The notes beneath the pieces were generated by a model. The model was given only the letters and a program-made list of their open reading frames with translations, had not been told where the DNA came from and made no database searches. A stretch of DNA of 33,109 nucleotides from Micrococcales bacterium (GTDB lineage Bacteria; Actinomycetota; Actinomycetes; Actinomycetales; Dermatophilaceae): the NCBI GenBank assembly GCA_003132125.1, contig PKWT01000031.1, positions 1 through 33,109 on the forward strand. Direction: 5' to 3'. The number at the start of each line of letters is the position of its first letter. Position 1 is the stretch's first letter. The position numbers and the translations under genes are program-made. Positions 9,516-32,850 of the stretch are shown here, piece by piece.

Positions 9516-9817
9516 GAGATCGCCTCCGATGCGTCCTCGACGTCGACCTCGATGGGGCGCCGGTCGACGAACTCACGAGGGACGACGATGAGGGCCGCTG
9601 GGGCGAGCGGGTCGAAGGCCTCGACGGGCAGGCGCACGGTGACCTTGATGGCCACCTGATCGCGCGCGAGCACCGCCGGCCGGTTCGTGCGCAGCGCGAC
9701 GATCCTGGTCTTCTCGATGCAGCGCAGGCCCGTCTCGGGATCGGGAGAACCGTAGCGAGGCCGCGTTCCCTCGATCACGAGGTATGCCGTGGCATCGACC
9801 TGCTGCTTGGTGGTCAT
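9512..9817 (-). CDS. Hypothetical protein (101 aa)
   Basis: Trimmed to ATG 9817 (ATGA overlap). Starts MTTKQQVDATAYLVIEGTRPRYG. Confidence 0.7.
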   Translation of the reverse strand: MTTKQQVDATAYLVIEGTRPRYGSPDPETGLRCIEKTRIVALRTNRPAVLARDQVAIKVTVRLPVEAFDPLAPAALIVVPREFVDRRPIEVDVEDASEAIS

Positions 9818-10200
9818 AGGACGTTGCCTTCCCAGTGGCACCGGCACCCGCAGGTGGTCGGCTCGTCGGTCTGCTCGTTCCACGCGTCGCCAGCGCACGC
9901 GCGGTGCTTGTTCTGCTCGCAGTCGGGGTTGAGCGGGGTCTTGAGGGTCACCGGCGGCCGGGCTGGCAGGGTGCTGCGCCCGGTGGCGTCGACCTCGAGG
10001 TTCGTGAGCCCGTACCTCAGGCGGATGGTGCTCTCGGAGACACGCTGAGAGACGGACGCGTCGATCACGAACCTGTCCACCGCGTCGGTGAGCTTCTGGA
10101 TCAGCCACTCGGCCGTGGCGAGTACGTCGCGCTCGTCGCTGACTTCTCCGCCGGCCGCCATGACCTTCAGCGCCTCGAGGAGCGACGCGACGGTCACCAC
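9814..10200 (-). CDS. Hypothetical protein (~128 aa) with Cys-rich C-terminus
   Basis: ORF-track protein with C-terminus CEQNKHRACAGDAW...CGCRCHW. GTG 10197 would give a GTGA overlap with the upstream stop. Confidence 0.72.
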   Translation of the reverse strand: MVTVASLLEALKVMAAGGEVSDERDVLATAEWLIQKLTDAVDRFVIDASVSQRVSESTIRLRYGLTNLEVDATGRSTLPARPPVTLKTPLNPDCEQNKHRACAGDAWNEQTDEPTTCGCRCHWEGNVL

Positions 10201-10616
10201 TCGGGGATCTCGGTACGGAACCGGGCCAGCTCGGCGAGGAGCCGGTCAGTCTGCTCCTCGATGTCGCCCTCGATACAGGTCGCGCCCGGCGGGACGTCAC
10301 CGAGGGCCTCCGCGATCCGCCAGCTGATCGCATTGAGCACGACCGAGTCGACGGTCAGGCGCCGGACCTCGGTCGCGCAGCAACCCTCGGGATGCGATGC
10401 GAGCGCGAGGAGCTCGTCAGGATGCAGGACTGGGTGCGGTGCGGTGGTCAGGCCGATCGGCTCCGAGAAGCCCTCGAGCGTGGCGGCCGCGAGCGCGAGG
10501 TTGGCGTGTACCTGGGCGACGGCGATGAAGCCGGTGCGCAGGGAGACGCTGATGGTTTCGCGGGCGTCGTCGAGAGCGGCCCGGGCCTGGTTGCGTTCTT
10601 GGTCGTAGGTGGTCAT
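10194..10616 (-). CDS. Hypothetical protein (140 aa)
   Basis: Trimmed from the 418-aa Pro/Arg-rich ORF to ATG 10616, which forms an ATGA overlap with the upstream stop. Starts MTTYDQERNQARAALDDARE. Confidence 0.72.
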   Translation of the reverse strand: MTTYDQERNQARAALDDARETISVSLRTGFIAVAQVHANLALAAATLEGFSEPIGLTTAPHPVLHPDELLALASHPEGCCATEVRRLTVDSVVLNAISWRIAEALGDVPPGATCIEGDIEEQTDRLLAELARFRTEIPEW

Positions 10617-11272
10617 GCGGTGTACCTGCTTTCGATGTTGAGGGCTTGGCGGTCGCGGAGGATGGTGCGGGCGGTTGAGGAGCAGCGGTGGGCGATCTTG
10701 GCGTCGGAGATGCCCTGGGCTGCGAGGCGAGTGACGATGAGCCGCCTTTCGGTGCGGGTGAGGGGTGTTCGGTGGCCGGTCATGGCGCGTCGGATCGCGA
10801 CCTCGTCGACTGCGGTGCTGGGTGGGGGGCCGAGTGACGGCTTGGCGGTCGGGTCGTCGATCGTGTCGTCGTCCCACGCGAGGGGTGGTGGCCAGCCGGC
10901 GGCCAGTGCGCGGGCCCGCGTGATCGCGGACGGGCCGGGCGTCATGGACAGGCGGTCGTAGAGGGCGGTGATCCGGCGGGCGGTGGTGGCCTCGATGCGG
11001 GGACGCTCGTCGGTGAGGTGGTGCACGGCGGATCGGGTGACGCCCAGGCGCTCGGCGAGGTCGCCATAGGTCCAGCCGATCGCCGAGAGTGCCTGGATCC
11101 GGCGGCGGGTGCCGACCGCGTTCAGCATGTGCGGGTTGCCGGTCAGGACGTCGAGGCGGTAGCGGGACTGGCGGCGGGCGGTGGCGGCGCTGCAGGGCGC
11201 GCAGCGGCACCCTGCGGAGTACCGGGCGGGCGTGCCGTGCCCGGGGGTGGACCCGGGGATGCCGCGGCTCAT
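10613..11272 (-). CDS. Helix-turn-helix DNA-binding protein (219 aa, two HTH-like segments)
   Basis: Trimmed to ATG 11272 (ATGA overlap). Contains the GTPARYSAGCRCAPCSAA motif, HTH GWTYGDLAERLGVTRSAVHHL, and a C-terminal HTH GISDAKIAHRCSSTARTILRDR. Confidence 0.78.
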   Translation of the reverse strand: MSRGIPGSTPGHGTPARYSAGCRCAPCSAATARRQSRYRLDVLTGNPHMLNAVGTRRRIQALSAIGWTYGDLAERLGVTRSAVHHLTDERPRIEATTARRITALYDRLSMTPGPSAITRARALAAGWPPPLAWDDDTIDDPTAKPSLGPPPSTAVDEVAIRRAMTGHRTPLTRTERRLIVTRLAAQGISDAKIAHRCSSTARTILRDRQALNIESRYTA

Positions 11273-17164: not shown

Positions 17165-17443
17165 TCAGGGCGTGGGGTCTGCGACGTCGATCGCCGCGTT
17201 GAAGGCCTTCAGGGCTGGGGCCGCACGGGCGAACTCGCGGCGGTACAGCTCGAGGTGAAGGTCGAGGTCCTGTTCGCTGCCACGCAGTGAGCCGAGGGCT
17301 CTGACCATGCGGTCGGCGGCCTGGTGCGCCTCGTCGCGCAGCCCGGCACGGTCCGCGGCCGGGTTGCCGACCGAGGGCGCGTGGTACGGGTCGAAGAACC
17401 GTGGCACGTGGCGCGGCACGTCCGCCGGCGATGGCGTGGTCAC
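17165..17443 (-). CDS. Hypothetical protein (92 aa)
   Basis: GTG 17443 forms a GTGA overlap with the cro-like stop. Confidence 0.65.
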   Translation of the reverse strand: MTTPSPADVPRHVPRFFDPYHAPSVGNPAADRAGLRDEAHQAADRMVRALGSLRGSEQDLDLHLELYRREFARAAPALKAFNAAIDVADPTP

Positions 17444-17682
17444 GACGCGACCCGCTGGCTGGACACGGCGGTCGGGTCGAGCAGGTCCGCGGCGCTGACG
17501 CCGAGGATCTCTGCGATGTGCGTGATGTCGTTGACGTCGAAGGCGGTCTGCCCGCTCAGCCGCCGCGCCATTGCGGACTGTGAGCGGCCGAGTCGATGTG
17601 CGAGTTTGGACCCTGAGATCCGCTGACGTGCTAGAGCTGCTCTGACTTCCTCGGCTACCCGCTGGGTGGGTGGTGGTTGCAT
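17440..17682 (-). CDS. Cro-like XRE-family HTH regulator (80 aa), first gene of the early lytic operon
   Basis: HTH RISGSKLAHRLGRSQSAMARRLSGQ. Divergent from, and paralogous to, the plus-strand HTH gene. Confidence 0.85.
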   Translation of the reverse strand: MQPPPTQRVAEEVRAALARQRISGSKLAHRLGRSQSAMARRLSGQTAFDVNDITHIAEILGVSAADLLDPTAVSSQRVAS

Positions 17683-17689
17683 GGCAGGG

Positions 17690-17719
17690 ACGCTAACTCA
17701 CTAGGAGGGTAAGTTGCAA
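17690..17719 (-). promoter_or_regulatory. Candidate early promoter (minus strand: -35 TTGCAA, 18-nt spacer, -10 TAGCGT) giving a leaderless cro-like mRNA
   Basis: Read on the reverse complement. The -10 ends 7 nt before the ATG at 17682, and there is no SD before that ATG. Confidence 0.4.
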
Positions 17720-17738
17720 GCGCGTTCAGCAGCGTGTC

Positions 17739-17746
17739 GCATATGC
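17739..17746. promoter_or_regulatory. 8-bp perfect palindrome GCATATGC between the divergent promoters; candidate operator core
   Basis: Read directly from the sequence. TGTCGC / TGTCAC half-site-like direct repeats flank or overlap it (17735..17740, 17753..17758). Confidence 0.3.
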
Positions 17747-17770
17747 TGGGAATGTCACCCACTCGGCGGG

Positions 17771-17799
17771 TTGATTTCCTGCTACGCGACCCCTACGTT
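17771..17799 (+). promoter_or_regulatory. Candidate repressor promoter (-35 TTGATT, 17-nt spacer, -10 TACGTT) giving a leaderless mRNA starting at ATG 17806
   Basis: Read directly from the sequence. The -10 ends 6 nt before the ATG, and no SD precedes 17806. Confidence 0.45.
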
Positions 17800-17805
17800 A
17801 GCCAC

Positions 17806-18249
17806 ATGAGTCAGCAAACGGTGCTACCGCTCCCCGATCCGCAGGAGGGCCTCACGAGCCAGATCGCGCGCGCGTTGCGCGGAGTGCTCGCCGAGCGTCA
17901 GATCAGTGGCAACCGTCTCGCGCACGAGACGGGCCTCTCACAGTCGCGGATCTCGCGGCGCCTTACCGGCGAGTATCCGCTGGACACCGACGAGCTCGAC
18001 GTGATTCTCACAGTGGTGGGGGTGTCGATCGACGAGCTGCTGGACCGGGCAGCGAGAAGCCCCCGTCCGGATGGTCCGGACGGGGGCCGAAGAACAGTGC
18101 GCCATCCGCGACTCGAACGCGGAACCCGCTGGTTAAGCGTCTGCGCTGGTCAGAGCGCCCCCGATGGGCCGGAGGGCGGAGCGGACGTCATCGCGTTCCC
18201 GGGCAGCCGTCGGTCCGCCAGCACCCCGGCCGGAACTGAGGCCGCCTGA
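17806..18249 (+). CDS. Repressor-like XRE-family HTH protein (147 aa from ATG 17806), with a long C-terminal tail ending ...PAGTEAA
   Basis: HTH QISGNRLAHETGLSQSRISRRLTGE, about half identical by eye to the Cro-like protein. It is co-oriented with int. The tail is read through a hairpin and a tRNA-like segment. In-frame upstream starts (17734 GTG, 17743, 17752) are possible. Confidence 0.8.
   Translation: MSQQTVLPLPDPQEGLTSQIARALRGVLAERQISGNRLAHETGLSQSRISRRLTGEYPLDTDELDVILTVVGVSIDELLDRAARSPRPDGPDGGRRTVRHPRLERGTRWLSVCAGQSAPDGPEGGADVIAFPGSRRSASTPAGTEAA
18059..18087 (-). terminator. Perfect 13-bp-stem hairpin (gcccccgtccgga / tccggacgggggc) lying 10 nt downstream of the tRNA-like 3' end on the minus strand
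   Basis: Read directly from the sequence. On the minus strand it is followed by cttctcgc. It lies inside the repressor ORF. Confidence 0.5.
18098..18139 (-). other. tRNA 3'-half mimic (T-arm, acceptor 3' strand, discriminator A); candidate attP core
   Basis: The minus strand reads GGTT CCGCG TTCGAGT CGCGG ATGGCGC A, a canonical T stem-loop plus a 7-nt acceptor strand. The upstream CGCTTAA resembles an anticodon loop, but no pairing anticodon stem and no 5' acceptor strand exist. It is therefore a fragment, not a gene. Confidence 0.5.
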
Positions 18250-18518
18250 TGAGCACCACGACGACCCACGCGGCCGCGCGCCCGACGTCGGGCGACGAGC
18301 TGTACACGATCGGACTCGCACTGCAGGCCGAGTACGCCCGGGGCCTGGCCGCCGGGCGCGCCGAGGCCAGCGCCGCGATCGCTACCCTCGCCATCCGCGA
18401 AGAGGCCAACTGGCAGGCCGCATACACCGAGCACCGATCCCGGTGGATGCCCATGAGCTGGTACCTCGACGCACTCGAGGACGCCCGGGCCGCGGCCGCC
18501 GGCAAGGTGACCCGGTGA
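18249..18518 (+). CDS. Hypothetical protein (89 aa)
   Basis: ATG overlaps the repressor stop (TGATG). Ala-rich and helical. Confidence 0.6.
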   Translation: MSTTTTHAAARPTSGDELYTIGLALQAEYARGLAAGRAEASAAIATLAIREEANWQAAYTEHRSRWMPMSWYLDALEDARAAAAGKVTR

Positions 18519-18847
18519 GCCCGCGCGGAGACCACTCCGAGTTCTCCGGGTTCGTTCGCCGGATCCTGCGCGCCTACTCGCGGCGGTGCGCGTGCGCCGA
18601 CCCCGACGACCTCACCGAGTTGCTCGCCCTGCAGGGCGAGGTCGACACCGCCATCACCGCCGCCGTGGCGGGCCTGCGCCGATCCGGCTTCTCGTGGGCC
18701 GAGATCGCCACCGCCGCGCACACCACACGGCAGGCCGCCCAGCAGCGCTGGGGCGTCAAGGCAGCCTTGACGACAGAACCAGTTGTGCTGAACGACACAC
18801 CAGCGACACCCGTGCGCACCATCCGCGTGGCCACAGCCGCGGTCTAG
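18515..18847 (+). CDS. Putative HTH protein (110 aa); possible excisionase/regulator
   Basis: GTG 18515 forms a GTGA overlap with the upstream stop. HTH-like GFSWAEIATAAHTTRQAAQQRWG. Confidence 0.6.
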   Translation: MSPRGDHSEFSGFVRRILRAYSRRCACADPDDLTELLALQGEVDTAITAAVAGLRRSGFSWAEIATAAHTTRQAAQQRWGVKAALTTEPVVLNDTPATPVRTIRVATAAV

Positions 18848-18868
18848 CGCACAGCGGCGCCGGACAGG

Positions 18869-19756
18869 GTGACCGGCGTGACCTACCCGCCGAACGCCTC
18901 GCCCTGGGACGTCCCCACGGCCGCCTGGCTCACCTGGCTCCGTTCCGACGGGCGACCACCAGAGTCGGTCGCCGTTCGACGCACCCAGATCAGCCGACTC
19001 GCCCGCGACCACGCCCGACACTCCCCCTGGGCACTGAGCACCCAAGACCTCGCCGACTGGCTCGCGGCACACCCGACCTGGTCCCCGGCCTACCGGCGAG
19101 CCATGCGCTCAGCCGTGCGCGGCTTCTACGCCTGGGCCCGGGCCACCGGCCTGACCGAACGCGACCCCGCCCAGCTGCTGCCCCGCACCCGCCCCACGCT
19201 CCCAAAGCCACGACCCATACCCGACCAGGTCGTGGAGATCACCCTGGACGACGACGCCACCACCGAACGCGTCAAGCTGATGGTCGAGCTCGGCCGCGAC
19301 TGCGGACTCCGACGAGCCGAGATCGCCGGCGTGCACACCCGCGACATCGAGACCGTGCGCGGCGTGCTGTTCCTGCGCGTGCACGGCAAGGGACGCCGCG
19401 AGCGCCTGGTCCCGCTGCCGCACGGACTGGCGTGGCGGCTGCGCGCCGAAGGCCCCGGGTGGGTGTTCCCGTCCCCCGCACGCCCCGGGAAGCCCCTGAC
19501 AGCCGCGCACGTGGGCCGACTGGTCCGGGGTGCCCTGGGAGGCCCGTGGACGACCCACACGCTGCGTCACGGGTACGCCACCGCGGCGTACCAGGTCGAC
19601 CGGGACCTGATCGCGGTCCGCGACCTACTCGGGCACTCCTCGGTCGCCACCACCCAGGTCTACGTGCTGGCACCCGACGACGCGATGCTCAAGGCAGCCC
19701 ACGGCGCCCAACTACGGCGCCGCGACTACGGACGCGAGACGAACACCGCCGCGTGA
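18869..19756 (+). CDS. int: Tyrosine integrase (295 aa), C-terminus ...GRETNTAA
   Basis: Catalytic-type motifs GLRRAEI, HTLRHGYAT and LLGHSSVATTQVY (R...HxxR...H..Y). Confidence 0.93.
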   Translation: MTGVTYPPNASPWDVPTAAWLTWLRSDGRPPESVAVRRTQISRLARDHARHSPWALSTQDLADWLAAHPTWSPAYRRAMRSAVRGFYAWARATGLTERDPAQLLPRTRPTLPKPRPIPDQVVEITLDDDATTERVKLMVELGRDCGLRRAEIAGVHTRDIETVRGVLFLRVHGKGRRERLVPLPHGLAWRLRAEGPGWVFPSPARPGKPLTAAHVGRLVRGALGGPWTTHTLRHGYATAAYQVDRDLIAVRDLLGHSSVATTQVYVLAPDDAMLKAAHGAQLRRRDYGRETNTAA

Positions 19757-19769
19757 GACGCGGCCGCGC

Positions 19770-20039
19770 TCAGGCGCCCGGGCCGGGACGCACGAACAGA
19801 GGCATGGCCGACAGGCGCCCGGATGCGCCGCCGCCAGAGCCCACGGCCCAGGTGTGCAGCTGCCAGCCGACGCCGATGATGATCGCCATCATCTGCTCGA
19901 TGTCGGCGATCCGACCGGACATGCCGCCCTGACCCGTCGGGGGCATCAGGATCGGGGTGAAGAAGGGCAGGCCCTCGTTCCATGCGTCGGCCGCGTCGGT
20001 GGCGACCCGGTCGAACTTCTTGTCCTTCATCCATGCCAT
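19770..20039 (-). CDS. Hypothetical protein (89 aa); stand-alone gene between the late-operon terminator and int
   Basis: Trimmed from the 183-aa ORF to ATG 20039. Sequence: MAWMKDKKFDRVATDAADAWNEGLPFFTPILMPPTGQGGMSGRIADIEQMMAIIIGVGWQLHTWAV. Confidence 0.62.
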   Translation of the reverse strand: MAWMKDKKFDRVATDAADAWNEGLPFFTPILMPPTGQGGMSGRIADIEQMMAIIIGVGWQLHTWAVGSGGGASGRLSAMPLFVRPGPGA

Positions 20040-20052: not shown

Positions 20053-20101
20053 GCCCCTGACGCGCGACCACGGAGCAGACACGGCCGGTGACAGCACGAA
20101 G

Positions 20102-20129
20102 GCGCCCCCCACCCGAAGGTGGGGGGCGC
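20102..20129. terminator. Strong hairpin (12-bp perfect stem gcgccccccacc / ggtggggggcgc, loop cgaa); terminator of the late/lysis operon
   Basis: Read directly from the sequence. Sits in the 109-nt gap after the last late gene. No long U-tract, as is common in high-GC actinobacteria. Confidence 0.6.
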
Positions 20130-20148
20130 TCGTGCCGGGGTTGAGCGG

Positions 20149-28414: not shown

Positions 28415-29443
28415 TCAGACGACGGTGTCGGTCGTGACATGCACGACCGTGAACGGCGGGTTCACGAGGTTGCTCAGGCCGTCGAAGTCGATGGACTGGG
28501 TGATGACCTGACCGCCGTTGGATGCCGGGATGTTGCCGTTCAGGTTGATCAGCGGCACCCAGATCTGCAAGACCGGGTGAGCGGATGTCCCGATGATCGC
28601 CGGGTGGGTGAACGTGAGCAGCAGCGCCAGGTCTGTCTGGGCGAGGTACGCGTCGCGGAGCTCGACCGTGTCGTACTCCGCGGTGATCTTCCCGGTCAGC
28701 TTCGCCGGACCCACGGCCGGCTTGCGGGTCCGCTTGCCCGCGCCGCCCAGGTTCCACCCCTTGGCGTCCAGGCCCTGGTCCCACTTCAGGGAGAAGCTCG
28801 TGATGTCCGCGACCGAGGTGCCACCCGTGGCGATCGCCGTGGTCGTCGGACCCACCACGGTGCCACCGATGCAGATCACCCCGTGGACGAACGTGAAGAC
28901 GTCCAGAGGCGTCGGGTACGACGGGGCCGCGTAGGCGGGTGCGGTCTGGACCTCGCGGGCCGTCCAGTCCGTGGTGACCTCGACGATCTCGCCCTGCTTC
29001 GCGGAGATCTCCATCGACTTGCACGCCGAACCGAGGAACGTGATCGGCGTCGTCGCCCCACCACCGAGCGGCGGGATGCCCTTCTGGATCGTGTAGCTGT
29101 TGATCGGATCCGTCAGGGCCGGGGTGTGCACCTGCTGGTAGACAGGCGGCGTCTGGCCCGCTACCACGGTCGACGTGACCGCACCCATCGCCGCGTTGAG
29201 GAAGATCCCCAGGCCCTTGATCGGAGCCTCCAGAGTGATCGACCCTTCAGCGAGCTCCTCACCCAGGGAGCGCCGGTCAGCGCGGTCCACGCGAGACGCG
29301 ACACGCAGACCCTTGCCCTGCAGGAACGTCGGCTTACGGTCCAGGGACTCCGTCAAGAACTCGGGGAACTGGTCGACGACTACGGCCGTGCCGTAGGTCG
29401 CCTCGACCTTGATGCCGATGCTGCAATCCGCTTGCGTGGTCAT
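28415..29443 (-). CDS. Major tail (tube) protein (342 aa)
   Basis: IGIKVEATYGTAVVVDQFPEFLTESL... is a typical tail tube N-terminus. Size and position upstream of the chaperones and tape measure fit. Confidence 0.72.
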   Translation of the reverse strand: MTTQADCSIGIKVEATYGTAVVVDQFPEFLTESLDRKPTFLQGKGLRVASRVDRADRRSLGEELAEGSITLEAPIKGLGIFLNAAMGAVTSTVVAGQTPPVYQQVHTPALTDPINSYTIQKGIPPLGGGATTPITFLGSACKSMEISAKQGEIVEVTTDWTAREVQTAPAYAAPSYPTPLDVFTFVHGVICIGGTVVGPTTTAIATGGTSVADITSFSLKWDQGLDAKGWNLGGAGKRTRKPAVGPAKLTGKITAEYDTVELRDAYLAQTDLALLLTFTHPAIIGTSAHPVLQIWVPLINLNGNIPASNGGQVITQSIDFDGLSNLVNPPFTVVHVTTDTVV

Positions 29444-29932: not shown

Positions 29933-30406
29933 TCATGGCCCGGTGACCCGGACCTGCGCGGTGAACTCGGCTTCGATCTCGATCAGGCGCCCGTAGTTCA
30001 GGAACTTCGGGTCCGTCTCCCCGGTGGCCGTGTGGGACGTCAGGAAGCACTGCCGGACGACGCCACCCAGGGTCGTGTCCGTCTGGCGCACGTAGTGCTC
30101 CAGGAGGCCCAGCAGGGCGTAGGCGGCGTCGGAGGCCACACGCTCCTGGTCCTGATCACCTGGGCGCTCGCACGAGACCCACACCTTCTGCGTGAGGGTC
30201 TCCTCGCGGGACCGGTTCGTGCCCATCGTCGCTACCGATTGCTGCGAGACCGTGTCCGCGAAGGACACGATGTCCCGCCAGTTCGCGACGTCAACACCCG
30301 GGTGACCGAACGTCACCAGGACCTCTTGACCTGCGACGAGCGCGGTCATCGCATCGACCATGGCCGCCTTGAACTGCTGGGCCGCGGTGACCGAGGACGT
30401 GGCCAT
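29933..30406 (-). CDS. Head-tail joining / tail-terminator-like protein (157 aa)
   Basis: Trimmed to ATG 30406, which forms a TAATG overlap with the upstream stop. The call rests on position and size only. Confidence 0.6.
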   Translation of the reverse strand: MATSSVTAAQQFKAAMVDAMTALVAGQEVLVTFGHPGVDVANWRDIVSFADTVSQQSVATMGTNRSREETLTQKVWVSCERPGDQDQERVASDAAYALLGLLEHYVRQTDTTLGGVVRQCFLTSHTATGETDPKFLNYGRLIEIEAEFTAQVRVTGP

Positions 30407-31173
30407 TAGGCGAACCCGCCGGCGTGCACCGTCAGGTTGCACAGCTCGACGACGCGCTTGGGAACCGCGAACCCGAACGGGGTGGCGACCATGTCCGCGG
30501 GCGCATCCATCCGCCCCGGGGTGCCGGTGCGGCGCCCGGACGACCATAGGTGCTTGATGAGCTCAGCGGCGGCCAGGCGCAAGTTCGCGGGGATCGTCGT
30601 CGATCCCACCGTGTACGTGACTGAGATGTTCCGCGGCGGCCCAGTCGGGAACGAGGAGAACACCAGGCCGGCGTCTGCGTCGACCTGATACAGCGCCGGG
30701 TCCAGCACCACGGCGCCTACCATCACCTGGGACACCTGCACCGGTGCGGCAGGCAGCACCACCGACGTGCGAGGCCCGTCCGTGAGGTACGTGCGGGCAG
30801 CGGAGATCACCGGACCCGCCAGGTTCTCGATCACGTAGGTCGCCGTCGCGACGTACAGCGCAAGGTCGTTCTGCTGAGACGCCGGCATGGACCCGAGAAT
30901 CCCCAGGGCGTCGGCGATCGAGATGATGTACCGCGGGTCAGCGGGCCACACGTCCAAGATGTCGACGAACGTGACGCCAGCGAGCGTCCACGTCAGCAGA
31001 TGACGACCTGGTTGGGACGTGACGATCGTCGCGGACTGTGTCCCCGCGGAGACCGTCACCGTCGGGGCGGGCGTCAGCGTCGTGGTATCCGGCAGACGGA
31101 CCGCGAGCGACGCCGCGACCGTCCCCCCTGAAGCCCACGAGACGGGCGCTGTGGCCCCGACGATGACCGGCAC
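30406..31173 (-). CDS. Head-tail adaptor (gp6-like) with N-terminal extension (255 aa)
   Basis: The central DALGIL...QQNDLALYVATATYVIENLAGPV resembles head-tail connector family motifs. It lies downstream of the capsid gene. Confidence 0.62.
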   Translation of the reverse strand: MPVIVGATAPVSWASGGTVAASLAVRLPDTTTLTPAPTVTVSAGTQSATIVTSQPGRHLLTWTLAGVTFVDILDVWPADPRYIISIADALGILGSMPASQQNDLALYVATATYVIENLAGPVISAARTYLTDGPRTSVVLPAAPVQVSQVMVGAVVLDPALYQVDADAGLVFSSFPTGPPRNISVTYTVGSTTIPANLRLAAAELIKHLWSSGRRTGTPGRMDAPADMVATPFGFAVPKRVVELCNLTVHAGGFA

Positions 31174-31179
31174 GAGGTG

Positions 31180-31488
31180 TTACGCGCCCTTCGACTTGCC
31201 AGCGGCGTCAGCAGCCGGCGGGACGTCGGCCGCGGGCACCGGGGTCTCCGGCGCGGGCGGCGCGGGCGTCTCCGGCGCGGGCGGCGCGGGGGTCTCCGGT
31301 GCGGGCGGCGCGGGGGTCTCCGGTGCGGGCGTGACCGCGGCCTCGAGTGGGACCTCGAGCACGGAGGCCATGCCGGCGGCGATCATGACGGCAGCCTCGG
31401 CGTCGGGCAGGTCGATGACCTCGCCCTTCGGTGGCCACGGTGCGCCGTCGCGCGAGCCGGAGATGAAGGCCTCGATGGTGACCTGCAT
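31180..31488 (-). CDS. Conserved actinophage head-region protein (102 aa) with a C-terminal (APETPAPP)n repeat
   Basis: Trimmed to ATG 31488 with GGAAGG SD. MQVTIEAFISGSRDGAPWPPKGEVIDLPDAEAAVMIAAGMA resembles proteins found just after capsid genes in actinophages (recognition only). Confidence 0.68.
   Translation of the reverse strand: MQVTIEAFISGSRDGAPWPPKGEVIDLPDAEAAVMIAAGMASVLEVPLEAAVTPAPETPAPPAPETPAPPAPETPAPPAPETPVPAADVPPAADAAGKSKGA
31241..31331. repeat. 24-bp tandem repeat, about 3.8 copies (ggggtctccggygcgggcggcgcg), in frame, encoding APETPAPP units
   Basis: Read directly from the sequence. Units at 31241, 31265 and 31289, plus a partial unit at 31313. Confidence 0.9.
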
Positions 31489-31573: not shown

Positions 31574-32824
31574 TCAGGACGCGGCGCCGACGAAGTGCTT
31601 GACGGCGCCCGTCTGGTCGAGCAGGGTTCCGTCCGCGCGGAGCACCGCACGGAACGTCGTCTGGTCGGTGTTGAACTGGTAGTCGCGGGACTGCTCGAAG
31701 CGCAGCCCGTTGACGATCCGCGCGAAGTACGCGGCCATGTCCCCGAAGATCACCGACTTGGCGTTCAGGGCCGTGCCCGGCATCCAGACCTCGGAGATGA
31801 CCCGCTTGCCGAGCATCGTGTCCGGCGTCCCCTCGGTCAGGCCCGGCTGCCACAGGTACTGCCCGTAGGTGTTCTTCAGGGTCCGCAGGACCCCGACGGT
31901 CACGTCGTTCGTGATCCACGCCGCGGAGGCCGCGGCCCGGTACTGCGGGATGACCGAGTAGTACAGGGCGATCATGTCGTCGAAGTTCGGCGCGCCCACC
32001 ACGGCCGTGGACCCGGTCTTGCCGAGGGTCGTCAGGGTTGTGATCCCGGTCGGCTGACCGGTGCCGGTGCCGACGACGAGGCCCTGGCCGATGAGGTTGC
32101 CGATCGCGCGACCGGCCTGCATCGACAGGTACCCCTGGAGATCCACGCCGGTGTCCTCGATGAGCTCGTTCGCCACCGAGATCAGCAGCCCCGCCTTGTA
32201 CGCCGAGAGGGTGCGCTGGGCGAACGCCGGGTCGGACTCGTTCAGCGGGGCCTGCGCCGCACCCCACGTTGCGGTCGAATGCGACGTGGTCGTGGGCAGC
32301 TGGATCTGGTTGCCGTCGTTGGTCTGCAGGACCGTGATGCCCGACTGCAGCATCTGCGAGGAGTTGATCAGGTGCGCCCACAGCTGGTTATAGAAGTTCG
32401 TCGGCTGGGTCGCACCACCGGCGGCCGCCGTTAGCCCGGACAGGCCCGCGCGCTGCTCCCGGTACGCCCCAGCAGCCCGAACCTCGGCGACCGTTGGGTT
32501 GATCTCGTAGGCGCGGGTCTCACCGCGCAGGAACGCGCGCAGCGCCTCGGACTCGTTCGCCTTGGCCGGCGCGTGGGCCGGGTTCACCGGCGCCTCGGCG
32601 AGCTTGCGCAGCGACTCCTCGGACGCCGTCGCGTTGCGCTCGTCCTCGATCAGCTTGTCGACCATCGCCCGGGAGGCGTTCAGGTCCTCGGTCATCTTCG
32701 CGTAGGAGGCCTCCTCCTCGCCGGTGAGCTTGCGCTCTTCCTTGGTGGCTGCATCGAGAAGCGCCTTGGCCTGCTCCCAGGTCTTGGCCCGCTGCTCGAG
32801 GAGCATCGTCGTGTATCCGCTCAC
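31574..32824 (-). CDS. Major capsid protein, HK97 fold, with N-terminal delta (scaffold) domain
   Basis: A coiled-coil N-terminus of about 100 aa is followed by a capsid body (e.g. GLLISVANELIEDTGVDL, NDVTVGVLRTLKNTYGQYLWQP). GTG 32824 has GGAGA 7 nt upstream. The listed ATG 32845 sits next to a hairpin and has no SD. Confidence 0.93.
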   Translation of the reverse strand: MSGYTTMLLEQRAKTWEQAKALLDAATKEERKLTGEEEASYAKMTEDLNASRAMVDKLIEDERNATASEESLRKLAEAPVNPAHAPAKANESEALRAFLRGETRAYEINPTVAEVRAAGAYREQRAGLSGLTAAAGGATQPTNFYNQLWAHLINSSQMLQSGITVLQTNDGNQIQLPTTTSHSTATWGAAQAPLNESDPAFAQRTLSAYKAGLLISVANELIEDTGVDLQGYLSMQAGRAIGNLIGQGLVVGTGTGQPTGITTLTTLGKTGSTAVVGAPNFDDMIALYYSVIPQYRAAASAAWITNDVTVGVLRTLKNTYGQYLWQPGLTEGTPDTMLGKRVISEVWMPGTALNAKSVIFGDMAAYFARIVNGLRFEQSRDYQFNTDQTTFRAVLRADGTLLDQTGAVKHFVGAAS

Positions 32825-32850
32825 GGTCGTTCTCCGTTCTGGCATGCGAA

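Follow-up and report, generated by a model that had tools for sequence, protein, structure and literature searches.

A Probable Integration-Dependent Immunity Switch with Two Additional Genes between rep and int in an Uncultured High-GC Phage

Introduction

Integration-dependent immunity (IDI) is a type of phage genetic switch described in the mycobacteriophages BPs, Brujita, and Charlie, in which the integrase, the repressor and a Cro-like protein are, in BPs, the products of genes 32 (int), 33 (rep), and 34 (cro) (PMC3694055, PMC4557955). In BPs, rep and int are co-oriented under a single promoter from which cro diverges, attP, the attachment site of the phage, is the 3′ part of a tRNA gene located within rep, and integration shortens Rep from 136 to 103 amino acids (PMC4557955). 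Both Rep and Int have ssrA-like C-terminal ends; Rep of BPs ends in -AS, and the change A135E stabilizes it (PMC4557955). Here we describe the region between positions 17443 and 19756 of a 33,109-nucleotide contig (PKWT01000031.1, assembly GCA_003132125.1, Micrococcales bacterium, family Dermatophilaceae; hereafter "the window," meaning the whole stretch), a phage-like sequence of ~70% GC. With a probability of roughly 80%, this region would be an IDI switch of the BPs and Gordonia-phage type.

The comparison with BPs, made at the sequence level, reveals many points of likeness. In both phages rep and int are co-oriented, presumably under one promoter in the window, and cro diverges from them; a tRNA 3′ part within rep serves as attP; ~33–39 C-terminal residues of Rep are lost upon integration (predicted in the window, from 147 to 108 residues); Rep and Int both have ssrA-like ends; Int is short and lacks an arm-binding domain; and an operator lies between the −35 and −10 elements of cro, namely OR in BPs and a degenerate candidate palindrome in the window. 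On the other hand, the window differs from BPs by two additional open reading frames (ORFs) between rep and int, by its target, which is tRNA-Lys(CTT) instead of tRNA-Arg, and by a recognizable paralogy between Rep and Cro. No BPs protein is among the Rep or Int matches listed, and 253 mycobacteriophage records match Int at less than 60% identity.

The closest integrases among isolated phages, at ~42% identity, are those of the Gordonia phages GMA5, GRU3, McGonagall, and Jeanie (Cluster CW) as well as Hibiscus and others (PMC5559632); the definition of the IDI family used here is drawn from this study and from the work on BPs (PMC3694055, PMC4557955, PMC5559632). The Gordonia IDI phages and the window share the same tRNA-Lys(CTT) target family. 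GMA5 also resembles the window in having a hairpin just before the tRNA fragment and, between rep and int, a gene (gp18) whose product is 61% identical to that of orfB, the second of the two additional ORFs. Unlike the window, GMA5 has one inserted ORF instead of two, the first of the two (orfA) being an orphan, and its Rep frame across the tRNA segment is the other one (...CAIRDSNPEPAD...). Finally, the divergent gene of GMA5 and Hibiscus is annotated as an excise or MerR-like gene, in contrast to the Rep paralog of the window.

The Attachment Site within rep

The initial annotation of this DNA reasoned from BPs that attP should lie inside rep, and this is indeed where it was found. The 3′ part of a tRNA-Lys(CTT) gene runs antisense to rep across codons ~98–111 (Table 1), the segment where the prophage junctions of relatives also fall. 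The 25-mer at 18098–18122, with a T-arm reading CCGCG-TTCGAGT-CGCGG, is identical to the 3′ end of a bona fide tRNA-Lys gene, where it covers the T-arm, the acceptor strand, and the discriminator and ends at the last base of that gene. Since the core is present only once in the window, without a second copy, and no complete tRNA is found there by ARAGORN or by Rfam at gathering thresholds, as expected for a partial tRNA, the window represents the unintegrated form. The half-tRNA was also left unreported by the Rfam tRNA model with permissive thresholds and on a cut-out of the fragment, and this result is uninformative. When recombination was simulated within GAACCCGCTG, Rep shrank from 147 to 108 amino acids and acquired the end ...ERGTR, by virtue of a TGA in the anticodon stem of the host tRNA gene.

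Relatives of the window, designated here by locus numbers, were gathered by Rep and Int searches followed by contig retrieval. Rep-based locus searches of IMG/VR and JGI metagenomes gave no confirmed relatives; a 30-mer taken from the fragment as it reads in relatives retrieved 28 IMG/VR loci, 4 of them with a complete tRNA-Lys(CTT). L001, a viral form whose Rep is 85% identical to that of the window in its N-terminus, has a single ORF between rep and int and a tRNA fragment of the same kind. Other relatives correspond to the two ends of integrated elements. On the rep side (attL type), Rep of L002 (64% identical) enters a complete tRNA-Lys and ends at the TAA of the anticodon loop, which gives a protein of 105 amino acids, with opposite-strand genes beyond the junction, and the truncated Rep proteins of L038 and L030 end in ...AIRDSNPEPAD and ...VRHQGLEPRTH, respectively. 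On the int side (attR type), in L005, L007, and L010, whose Int is 70–81% identical to that of the window, host genes and a terminator-like hairpin of the host are followed by the 3′ end of the tRNA, a 3′ remnant of rep, small ORFs, int, and phage tail and lysis genes; the tRNA 3′ end at the junction includes CCA in L005 and L010. Integrated relatives therefore do contain the shorter, tail-less Rep that was anticipated for the prophage form (L002, L030, and L038), in keeping with the 108 amino acids predicted for the window.

The frame in which rep crosses the tRNA fragment provides further evidence. Read antisense in the rep frame of the window, the host tRNA gives ACC CGC TGA, and the phage copies replace this TGA by TGG (window and L007) or by TGT (L005, L009, and L010). 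In phages that use the other frame, it is the host TAA that is replaced, by TAT in L001 and by TTA in GMA5. Identity with the tRNA thus stops at the first antisense stop codon, which has been made a sense codon in the phage copy. The 3′ end of rep, expected by the initial annotation to be conserved as an open frame, is indeed open in relatives by way of substitutions that remove the antisense-tRNA stop codon, and these substitutions point to a Rep frame that is kept open by selection through and past the core.

A perfect hairpin is encoded within rep next to the tRNA fragment, and an equivalent is found at the same position in L001 and GMA5. Read on the minus strand, this hairpin comes directly after the 3′ end of the tRNA, so that integration would place it behind the restored tRNA-Lys gene, and it is possibly a terminator or a processing signal that doubles as coding sequence.

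Three peculiarities of this site were observed in other loci. First, the short and independent metagenome contigs L008, L009, and L012 all start at one base within the tRNA-Lys core (CCATCAGGGACTCGAACC...), as expected since assemblers break at repeated sequences; contig starts inside the core could be a usable signature for attL and attR in short-read assemblies. Second, the 17,727-bp IMG/VR contig L015 has two tRNA-Lys cores at a distance of 77 bp, both with the same ...EPADELLSLVTAA tail behind them, which is a tandem duplication of attP and the 3′ end of rep. Third, positions 9599–10897 of the 702-kb contig L006 comprise a 71-amino-acid ORF that lacks an HTH domain but retains hairpin and tRNA fragment together with a tail ending in -RIVA, followed by an Int 64% identical to that of the window and by DNA methylase, HNH, SMODS, and Imm_superinfect genes. 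This locus has the appearance of an IDI element that decayed and became a defence island.

C-Terminal Ends of Rep and Int

In its viral form, Rep of the window combines an HTH domain (residues ~12–84; Pfam HTH_26/HTH_3, PHROG transcriptional repressor) with a tail (residues 89–147) ending in -TEAA, and its tblastn matches include annotated immunity repressors of Gordonia phages. The start codon at 17806 is backed by homologs that begin with MSHQTV or MSTNSV at the aligned ATG, whereas the upstream ATG chosen by the gene caller gave a protein of 168 amino acids. AlphaFold2 assigns pLDDT values of 85–90 to the HTH domain and of 40–47 to residues 89–147, which are accordingly predicted to be disordered, as would fit a flexible tail.

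Int matches Pfam Phage_integrase (E 2e-19) and otherwise shows a weak SAM-like N-terminal domain, without an arm-binding domain; it is XerC/D-like by NCBIfam, below the cut-off. Motifs consistent with the catalytic residues of tyrosine recombinases (RRAEI, HGKGRRER, HTLRHG, and LLGHSS...QVY) were recognized by eye in the translation. Besides the integrases of GMA5, GRU3, McGonagall, and other Gordonia phages, its best phage matches at ~42%, Int has more distant long homologs in Microbacteriaceae, Cellulomonas-like, and Rhodococcus genomes.

The ends ...STPAGTEAA of Rep and ...GRETNTAA of Int, from which the initial annotation started, are both present in the sequence. Alanine makes up 13.8% of residues, hence ~2% of proteins are expected to end in Ala-Ala from composition; in a crude call of 33 genes of the window only Int does so, and Rep, which was missed by this call, makes two. 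Two such genes in one phage are not remarkable by count alone. The ends are nevertheless judged to be beyond chance because their carriers are precisely Rep and Int and because relatives with unalignable tails show the trait again. The tails of viral-form Rep vary among relatives in length, sequence, and even reading frame. For instance, Rep ends in TEAA in the window and L007, in ETAA, TVAA, EIAA, RVAS, or RIVA in other relatives, in GAAA in GMA5, VTAA in GRU3, and PAAA in Hibiscus, and further IMG/VR elements also have Ala-Ala Rep ends. Counted over the relatives with an identifiable Rep frame, the ends are AA, AS, or VA, where -AS is included in the class because BPs Rep has this end and is stabilized by A135E. 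As for Int, the ends of the 120 best homologs were surveyed, separated into short (345 amino acids or less, n = 70) and long (n = 50) proteins. Ala-Ala ends occur in 35/70 short homologs vs. 0/50 long ones, and ends of the broader form [AVL][AVS] in 54/70 vs. 7/50; among the Gordonia phages, the end of Int is VA in GMA5 and AA in Hibiscus. The ssrA-like character attributed to both ends by the initial annotation thus holds for Rep as for Int (-NTAA).

These data bear on another explanation, namely that the region is an ordinary tRNA-targeting cassette in which attP happens to overlap an Xre-family repressor gene at a 3′ end that is dispensable, the two forms of Rep being equally active and stable and the Ala-Ala ends meaningless. 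The Ala-rich proteome (14%), the poor conservation of the Rep tail sequence and the reading of the tRNA segment in two frames among relatives are all compatible with such a cassette. However, a dispensable tail would hardly be kept open by the removal of exactly the antisense-tRNA stop codon, in both frames, nor would AA, AS, or VA be found wherever the Rep frame of relatives can be identified despite unalignable tails, or Ala-Ala ends be present in half of the short Int homologs and in none of the long ones. Furthermore, changes in the tags shift the lysogeny frequency of BPs (PMC3694055, PMC4557955). We therefore regard an ordinary cassette as improbable.

Proposed Operation of the Switch

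Gene order, the position of attP, the truncation of Rep in silico and in relatives, and the conservation of the terminal residues are established; proteolysis, repression, promoters, and operators are inferred. In the unintegrated genome, a promoter just 5′ of rep would transcribe rep, orfA, orfB, and int. Viral Rep (147 amino acids), with its N-terminal HTH and a predicted disordered tail of ~60 residues ending in Ala-Ala, and Int, which has the same end, would both be short-lived if, by analogy with BPs, these ends act as ssrA-like degrons. Int molecules surviving long enough would recombine attP with the host tRNA-Lys gene and thereby split rep in two. The promoter-proximal part of rep would then enter the host half of the tRNA and meet the stop codon in the anticodon stem, and the resulting tail-less Rep of 108 amino acids, presumably stable, would bind the palindromic operators and repress the divergent cro/early promoter. 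From the geometry of the locus, the same recombination would uncouple the rep promoter from orfA, orfB, and int. ClpXP-mediated degradation and a lysis-lysogeny decision set by proteolysis, the latter suggested by the initial annotation, are carried over from the BPs experiments and would apply to the window by analogy.

Putative Promoters and Operators of the Control Region

The cro-like gene diverges from rep across a 123-bp control region (17683–17805), and its product, an 80-amino-acid HTH protein, is a paralog of Rep as previously noted (42% identity over 64 amino acids, E 1e-16). The regions of the recognition helices are near-identical, with SQSRISRRL in Rep and SQSAMARRL in Cro, hence the two proteins probably compete for the same operator sites. 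Candidates for such sites are three palindromes (Table 1). Exact matches to ACCCRCNNNGYGGGT occur only twice in the 33 kb, at 17657–17671 (O3) and 17757–17771 (O1), both of them associated with the control region, and the copies of the palindrome are conserved in L001 and L002. In L001 and L002 the counterparts of O1 read ACCCGCTAGGCGGGT and ACCCGCTCAGCGGGT, respectively, with unchanged spacing to the start of rep, and the degenerate O2 aligns with a perfect palindrome, ACCCACTCTGTGGGT, of L001. The −10-like TACGTT only 6 nt before the ATG of rep would imply a leaderless rep mRNA, and the arrangement of the region suggests that the rep and cro promoters are both leaderless and that the palindromes are their operators.

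Table 1. Positions of the features discussed, in coordinates of the window.
Feature	Position	Strand	Description
cro-like gene	17443..17682	minus	80 aa, Xre/HTH; first gene of leftward early operon; Pfam BetR/HTH_31/HTH_26; PHROG 4583 transcriptional repressor, E 4e-19
Candidate operator O3	17657..17671		15-bp palindrome ACCCGCTGGGTGGGT, within first cro codons; exact match to ACCCRCNNNGYGGGT
Putative cro promoter	17719-17714 and 17695-17690	minus	TTGCAA, 18 nt, TAGCGT, 7 nt, ATG 17682
Candidate operator O2	17696..17710		degenerate palindrome ACTCACTAGGAGGGT, in spacer of putative cro promoter
Candidate operator O1	17757..17771		palindrome ACCCACTCGGCGGGT, abuts putative rep promoter
Putative rep promoter	17771-17776 and 17794-17799	plus	TTGATT, 17 nt, TACGTT, 6 nt, ATG 17806
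rep	17806..18249	plus	viral-form immunity repressor, 147 aa; ATG 17806, TGA 18247-18249; ends ...STPAGTEAA
Perfect hairpin in rep	18059..18087		13-bp stem, 3-nt loop; encodes PRPDGPDGG; 10 nt downstream of tRNA 3′ end on minus strand
attP core	18098..18137	minus	3′ part of tRNA-Lys(CTT), antisense to rep, within rep codons ~98-111
attP, discriminator and acceptor strand	18098-18105	minus	
attP, T-arm	18106-18122	minus	
attP, variable loop	18123-18127	minus	5 nt
attP, anticodon-stem 3′ strand	18128-18132	minus	
attP, last anticodon-loop bases	18133-18137	minus	
orfA	18249..18518	plus	89 aa, orphan; predicted coding (GC3 0.91); translationally coupled to rep
orfB	18515..18847	plus	110 aa, GTG start; small HTH DNA-binding protein, GMA5 gp18 / RelI-ClpC2-like family
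int	18869..19756	plus	short tyrosine integrase, 295 aa; GTG 18869, TGA 19754-19756; ends ...GRETNTAA

The Host Attachment Site

Several observations weigh against reading the region as a functional IDI switch. An exact-pattern scan of 185,579 species genomes gave no actinobacterial match to the 25-mer core, a 35-mer core has no match in JGI metagenomes, and no integrated copy (lysogen) of the window phage was found in genome and metagenome collections. The T-stem of the window, CCGCG/CGCGG, departs from the CGGGG/CCCTG of the tRNA-Lys(CTT) genes adjoining relatives. In addition, a consensus scan found no sigma-70-type promoter or terminator in the window, and orfA and orfB are extras beyond the canonical three-gene IDI cassette.

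The only match to the 25-mer in the species genomes is a Firmicute tRNA-Lys(UUU), which reveals the type of tRNA and not the host. Compared base by base with the full tRNA-Lys(CTT) of L019, L027, L030, and L038, the fragment matches them throughout, from discriminator to anticodon stem, save for four positions in the T-stem. The four differences, which were examined by comparing positions 18106–18122 of the window with L001, L005, L007, L010, and the tRNA-Lys(CTT) beside relatives, amount to two compensated pair swaps (G.T to C-G and G-C to C-G), from CGGGG/CCCTG to CCGCG/CGCGG, with pairing kept. Exact-match searches for attB thus failed because the swaps set the window apart from the tRNA-Lys(CTT) of its relatives, and the compensation suggests that the fragment has been selected to form part of a working tRNA after integration.

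Alternatively, the module may have decayed or be mismatched to its host, with a drifted core that matches no attB and a phage that is non-integrating, lytic, or unstably temperate. The absence of the exact core from the genome and metagenome collections searched would be explained in this way, and Pope et al. describe Gordonia phages that carry IDI-like genes yet lack an attP usable in the host tested (PMC5559632). Nevertheless, all ORFs are intact and tightly coupled, motifs consistent with the catalytic residues of Int are present, both T-stem differences are compensatory, as expected of a fragment still needed in a working tRNA, and the identity around the likely crossover GAACCCGCTG is kept, while the collections cover only some hosts. 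Decay or host mismatch is hence quite improbable in our view, and a functional IDI switch remains the preferred reading.

The Genes between rep and int

The coupling of the two small genes described by the initial annotation is present: the ATG of orfA overlaps the stop codon of rep as TGATG (18247–18251), and the start of orfB overlaps the stop codon of orfA as GTGA (18515–18518). Given these 4-nt overlaps and a gap of only 21 nt between orfB and int, rep, orfA, orfB, and int are probably co-transcribed. The same annotation saw in this arrangement the logic of BPs in a different layout. Two ORFs do lie between rep and int, but the layout is new to a modest degree at most, as GMA5, reported in 2017 (PMC5559632), already has an inserted ORF of which orfB encodes the 61% homolog.

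The product of orfA has no match in Pfam, PHROG, NCBIfam, PADLOC, PDB, or, by tblastn, in phage records, and its sole relative is one partial 51-amino-acid match among 1.84 billion representatives. The product of orfB, on the other hand, belongs to a large family (PHROG 686, E 3e-11; GMA5 gp18, E 2e-36) with at least 1473 homologs, mostly on small actinophage-sized contigs, and without a Pfam model. Its AlphaFold2 model (pLDDT 86) has four helices and gave no significant match to the PDB with Foldseek, where a weak Fis-like topology was seen at E above 1. Homologs of orfB occupy the same position in L005, L014, L025, and L043, and small phages of Arthrobacter, Curtobacterium, and Microbacterium, as well as Nocardia phages, also carry them.

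No HTH_17/MerR-type excise gene was seen in the cassette; orfB, however, encodes a small DNA-binding protein. That it is itself the excise gene is unlikely, as some small phages carry a homolog although an integrase was not noted in them. One of these, phage Maggie, was reported to lack an immunity system (PMC5559632).

The orfB profile also matches RelI (Rv2664; PDB 9sdc), which was described in 2026 as an antitoxin of M. tuberculosis (PMC13284704), with an E-value of 2.4e-10, and more weakly Rv2667/ClpC2. Together with the 4-nt overlap of orfA and orfB and their sizes, which are typical of toxin-antitoxin systems, this match raises the possibility that a RelS-RelI-like addiction pair came by chance to lie between rep and int, and that this pair, not proteolysis, shapes the outcome of infection. 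However, the alignment spans RelI residues 23–80, the HTH part shared with ClpC2, and leaves aside the toxin-occluding N-terminal helix (PMC13284704); the N-terminal region of the orfB product differs from that of RelI. No RelS-like toxin is detectable beside orfB by sequence, orfA being an orphan without family and without similarity to RelS or to any PDB chain, and the pair has no PADLOC match. Moreover, many orfB homologs are solitary in phage genomes, standing without a partner directly after rep in GMA5 and also in small lytic phages. A RelS-RelI pair is consequently unsupported, and an outcome governed by such a pair is very improbable compared with the IDI switch proposed here.

The number of ORFs in the interval between rep and int varies: L009, L006, and Hibiscus have none there, L001, L010, L007, and GMA5 have one each, and the window, L005, and L043 have two, with unrelated ORFs occurring among relatives. 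Since integration cuts the DNA downstream of attP from the rep promoter, genes in this interval would be made only from the unintegrated genome. It is conceivable, though doubtful, that the interval is reserved for genes whose expression is confined to the time before integration, and that their products might join in the decision, for instance by serving Int as a directionality or architectural factor, by acting as an anti-repressor, or by forming a transient addiction module. Should orfB encode a recombination directionality factor (RDF), the window would represent IDI plus RDF, an intermediate that Broussard and Hatfull placed on the way to lambda-like switches.

Other Features of the Window

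To the right of the region lie tail and lysis genes, and to its left early genes, all on the minus strand. The cassette region (17400–19800), the part of the window searched by megablast, has no match among 50,697 phage records, and a 342-amino-acid capsid-like ORF (28415–29443) has no tblastn match in the same records; the lineage of this phage seems to be unsampled. Amid small minus-strand ORFs that separate int from the lysis genes, a GC-rich hairpin at 20100–20135 (gcgccccccacc cgaa ggtggggggcgc) is terminator-like without a T-tract. Further along, ~4 copies of a tandem 24-nt repeat (GGCGCGGGSGTCTCCGGYGCGGGC) are found at 31235–31330, at the overlap of the minus-strand ORFs 30406–31173 and 31574–32845, and may encode a Gly/Ala/Pro-rich repeat.

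Significance

The switch of the window, if it is one, is a further example of a known design and leaves the known model unchanged. It would extend IDI to an uncultured high-GC phage whose cassette region has no DNA-level relative among the sequenced phage records. It also offers three criteria by which IDI switches may be recognized in metagenomes: a 3′ tRNA fragment antisense within an HTH gene, an antisense stop codon turned into a sense codon, and AA-type termini on both the HTH protein and a short integrase. The interval between rep and int emerges as a variable cargo slot of 0, 1, or 2 ORFs.

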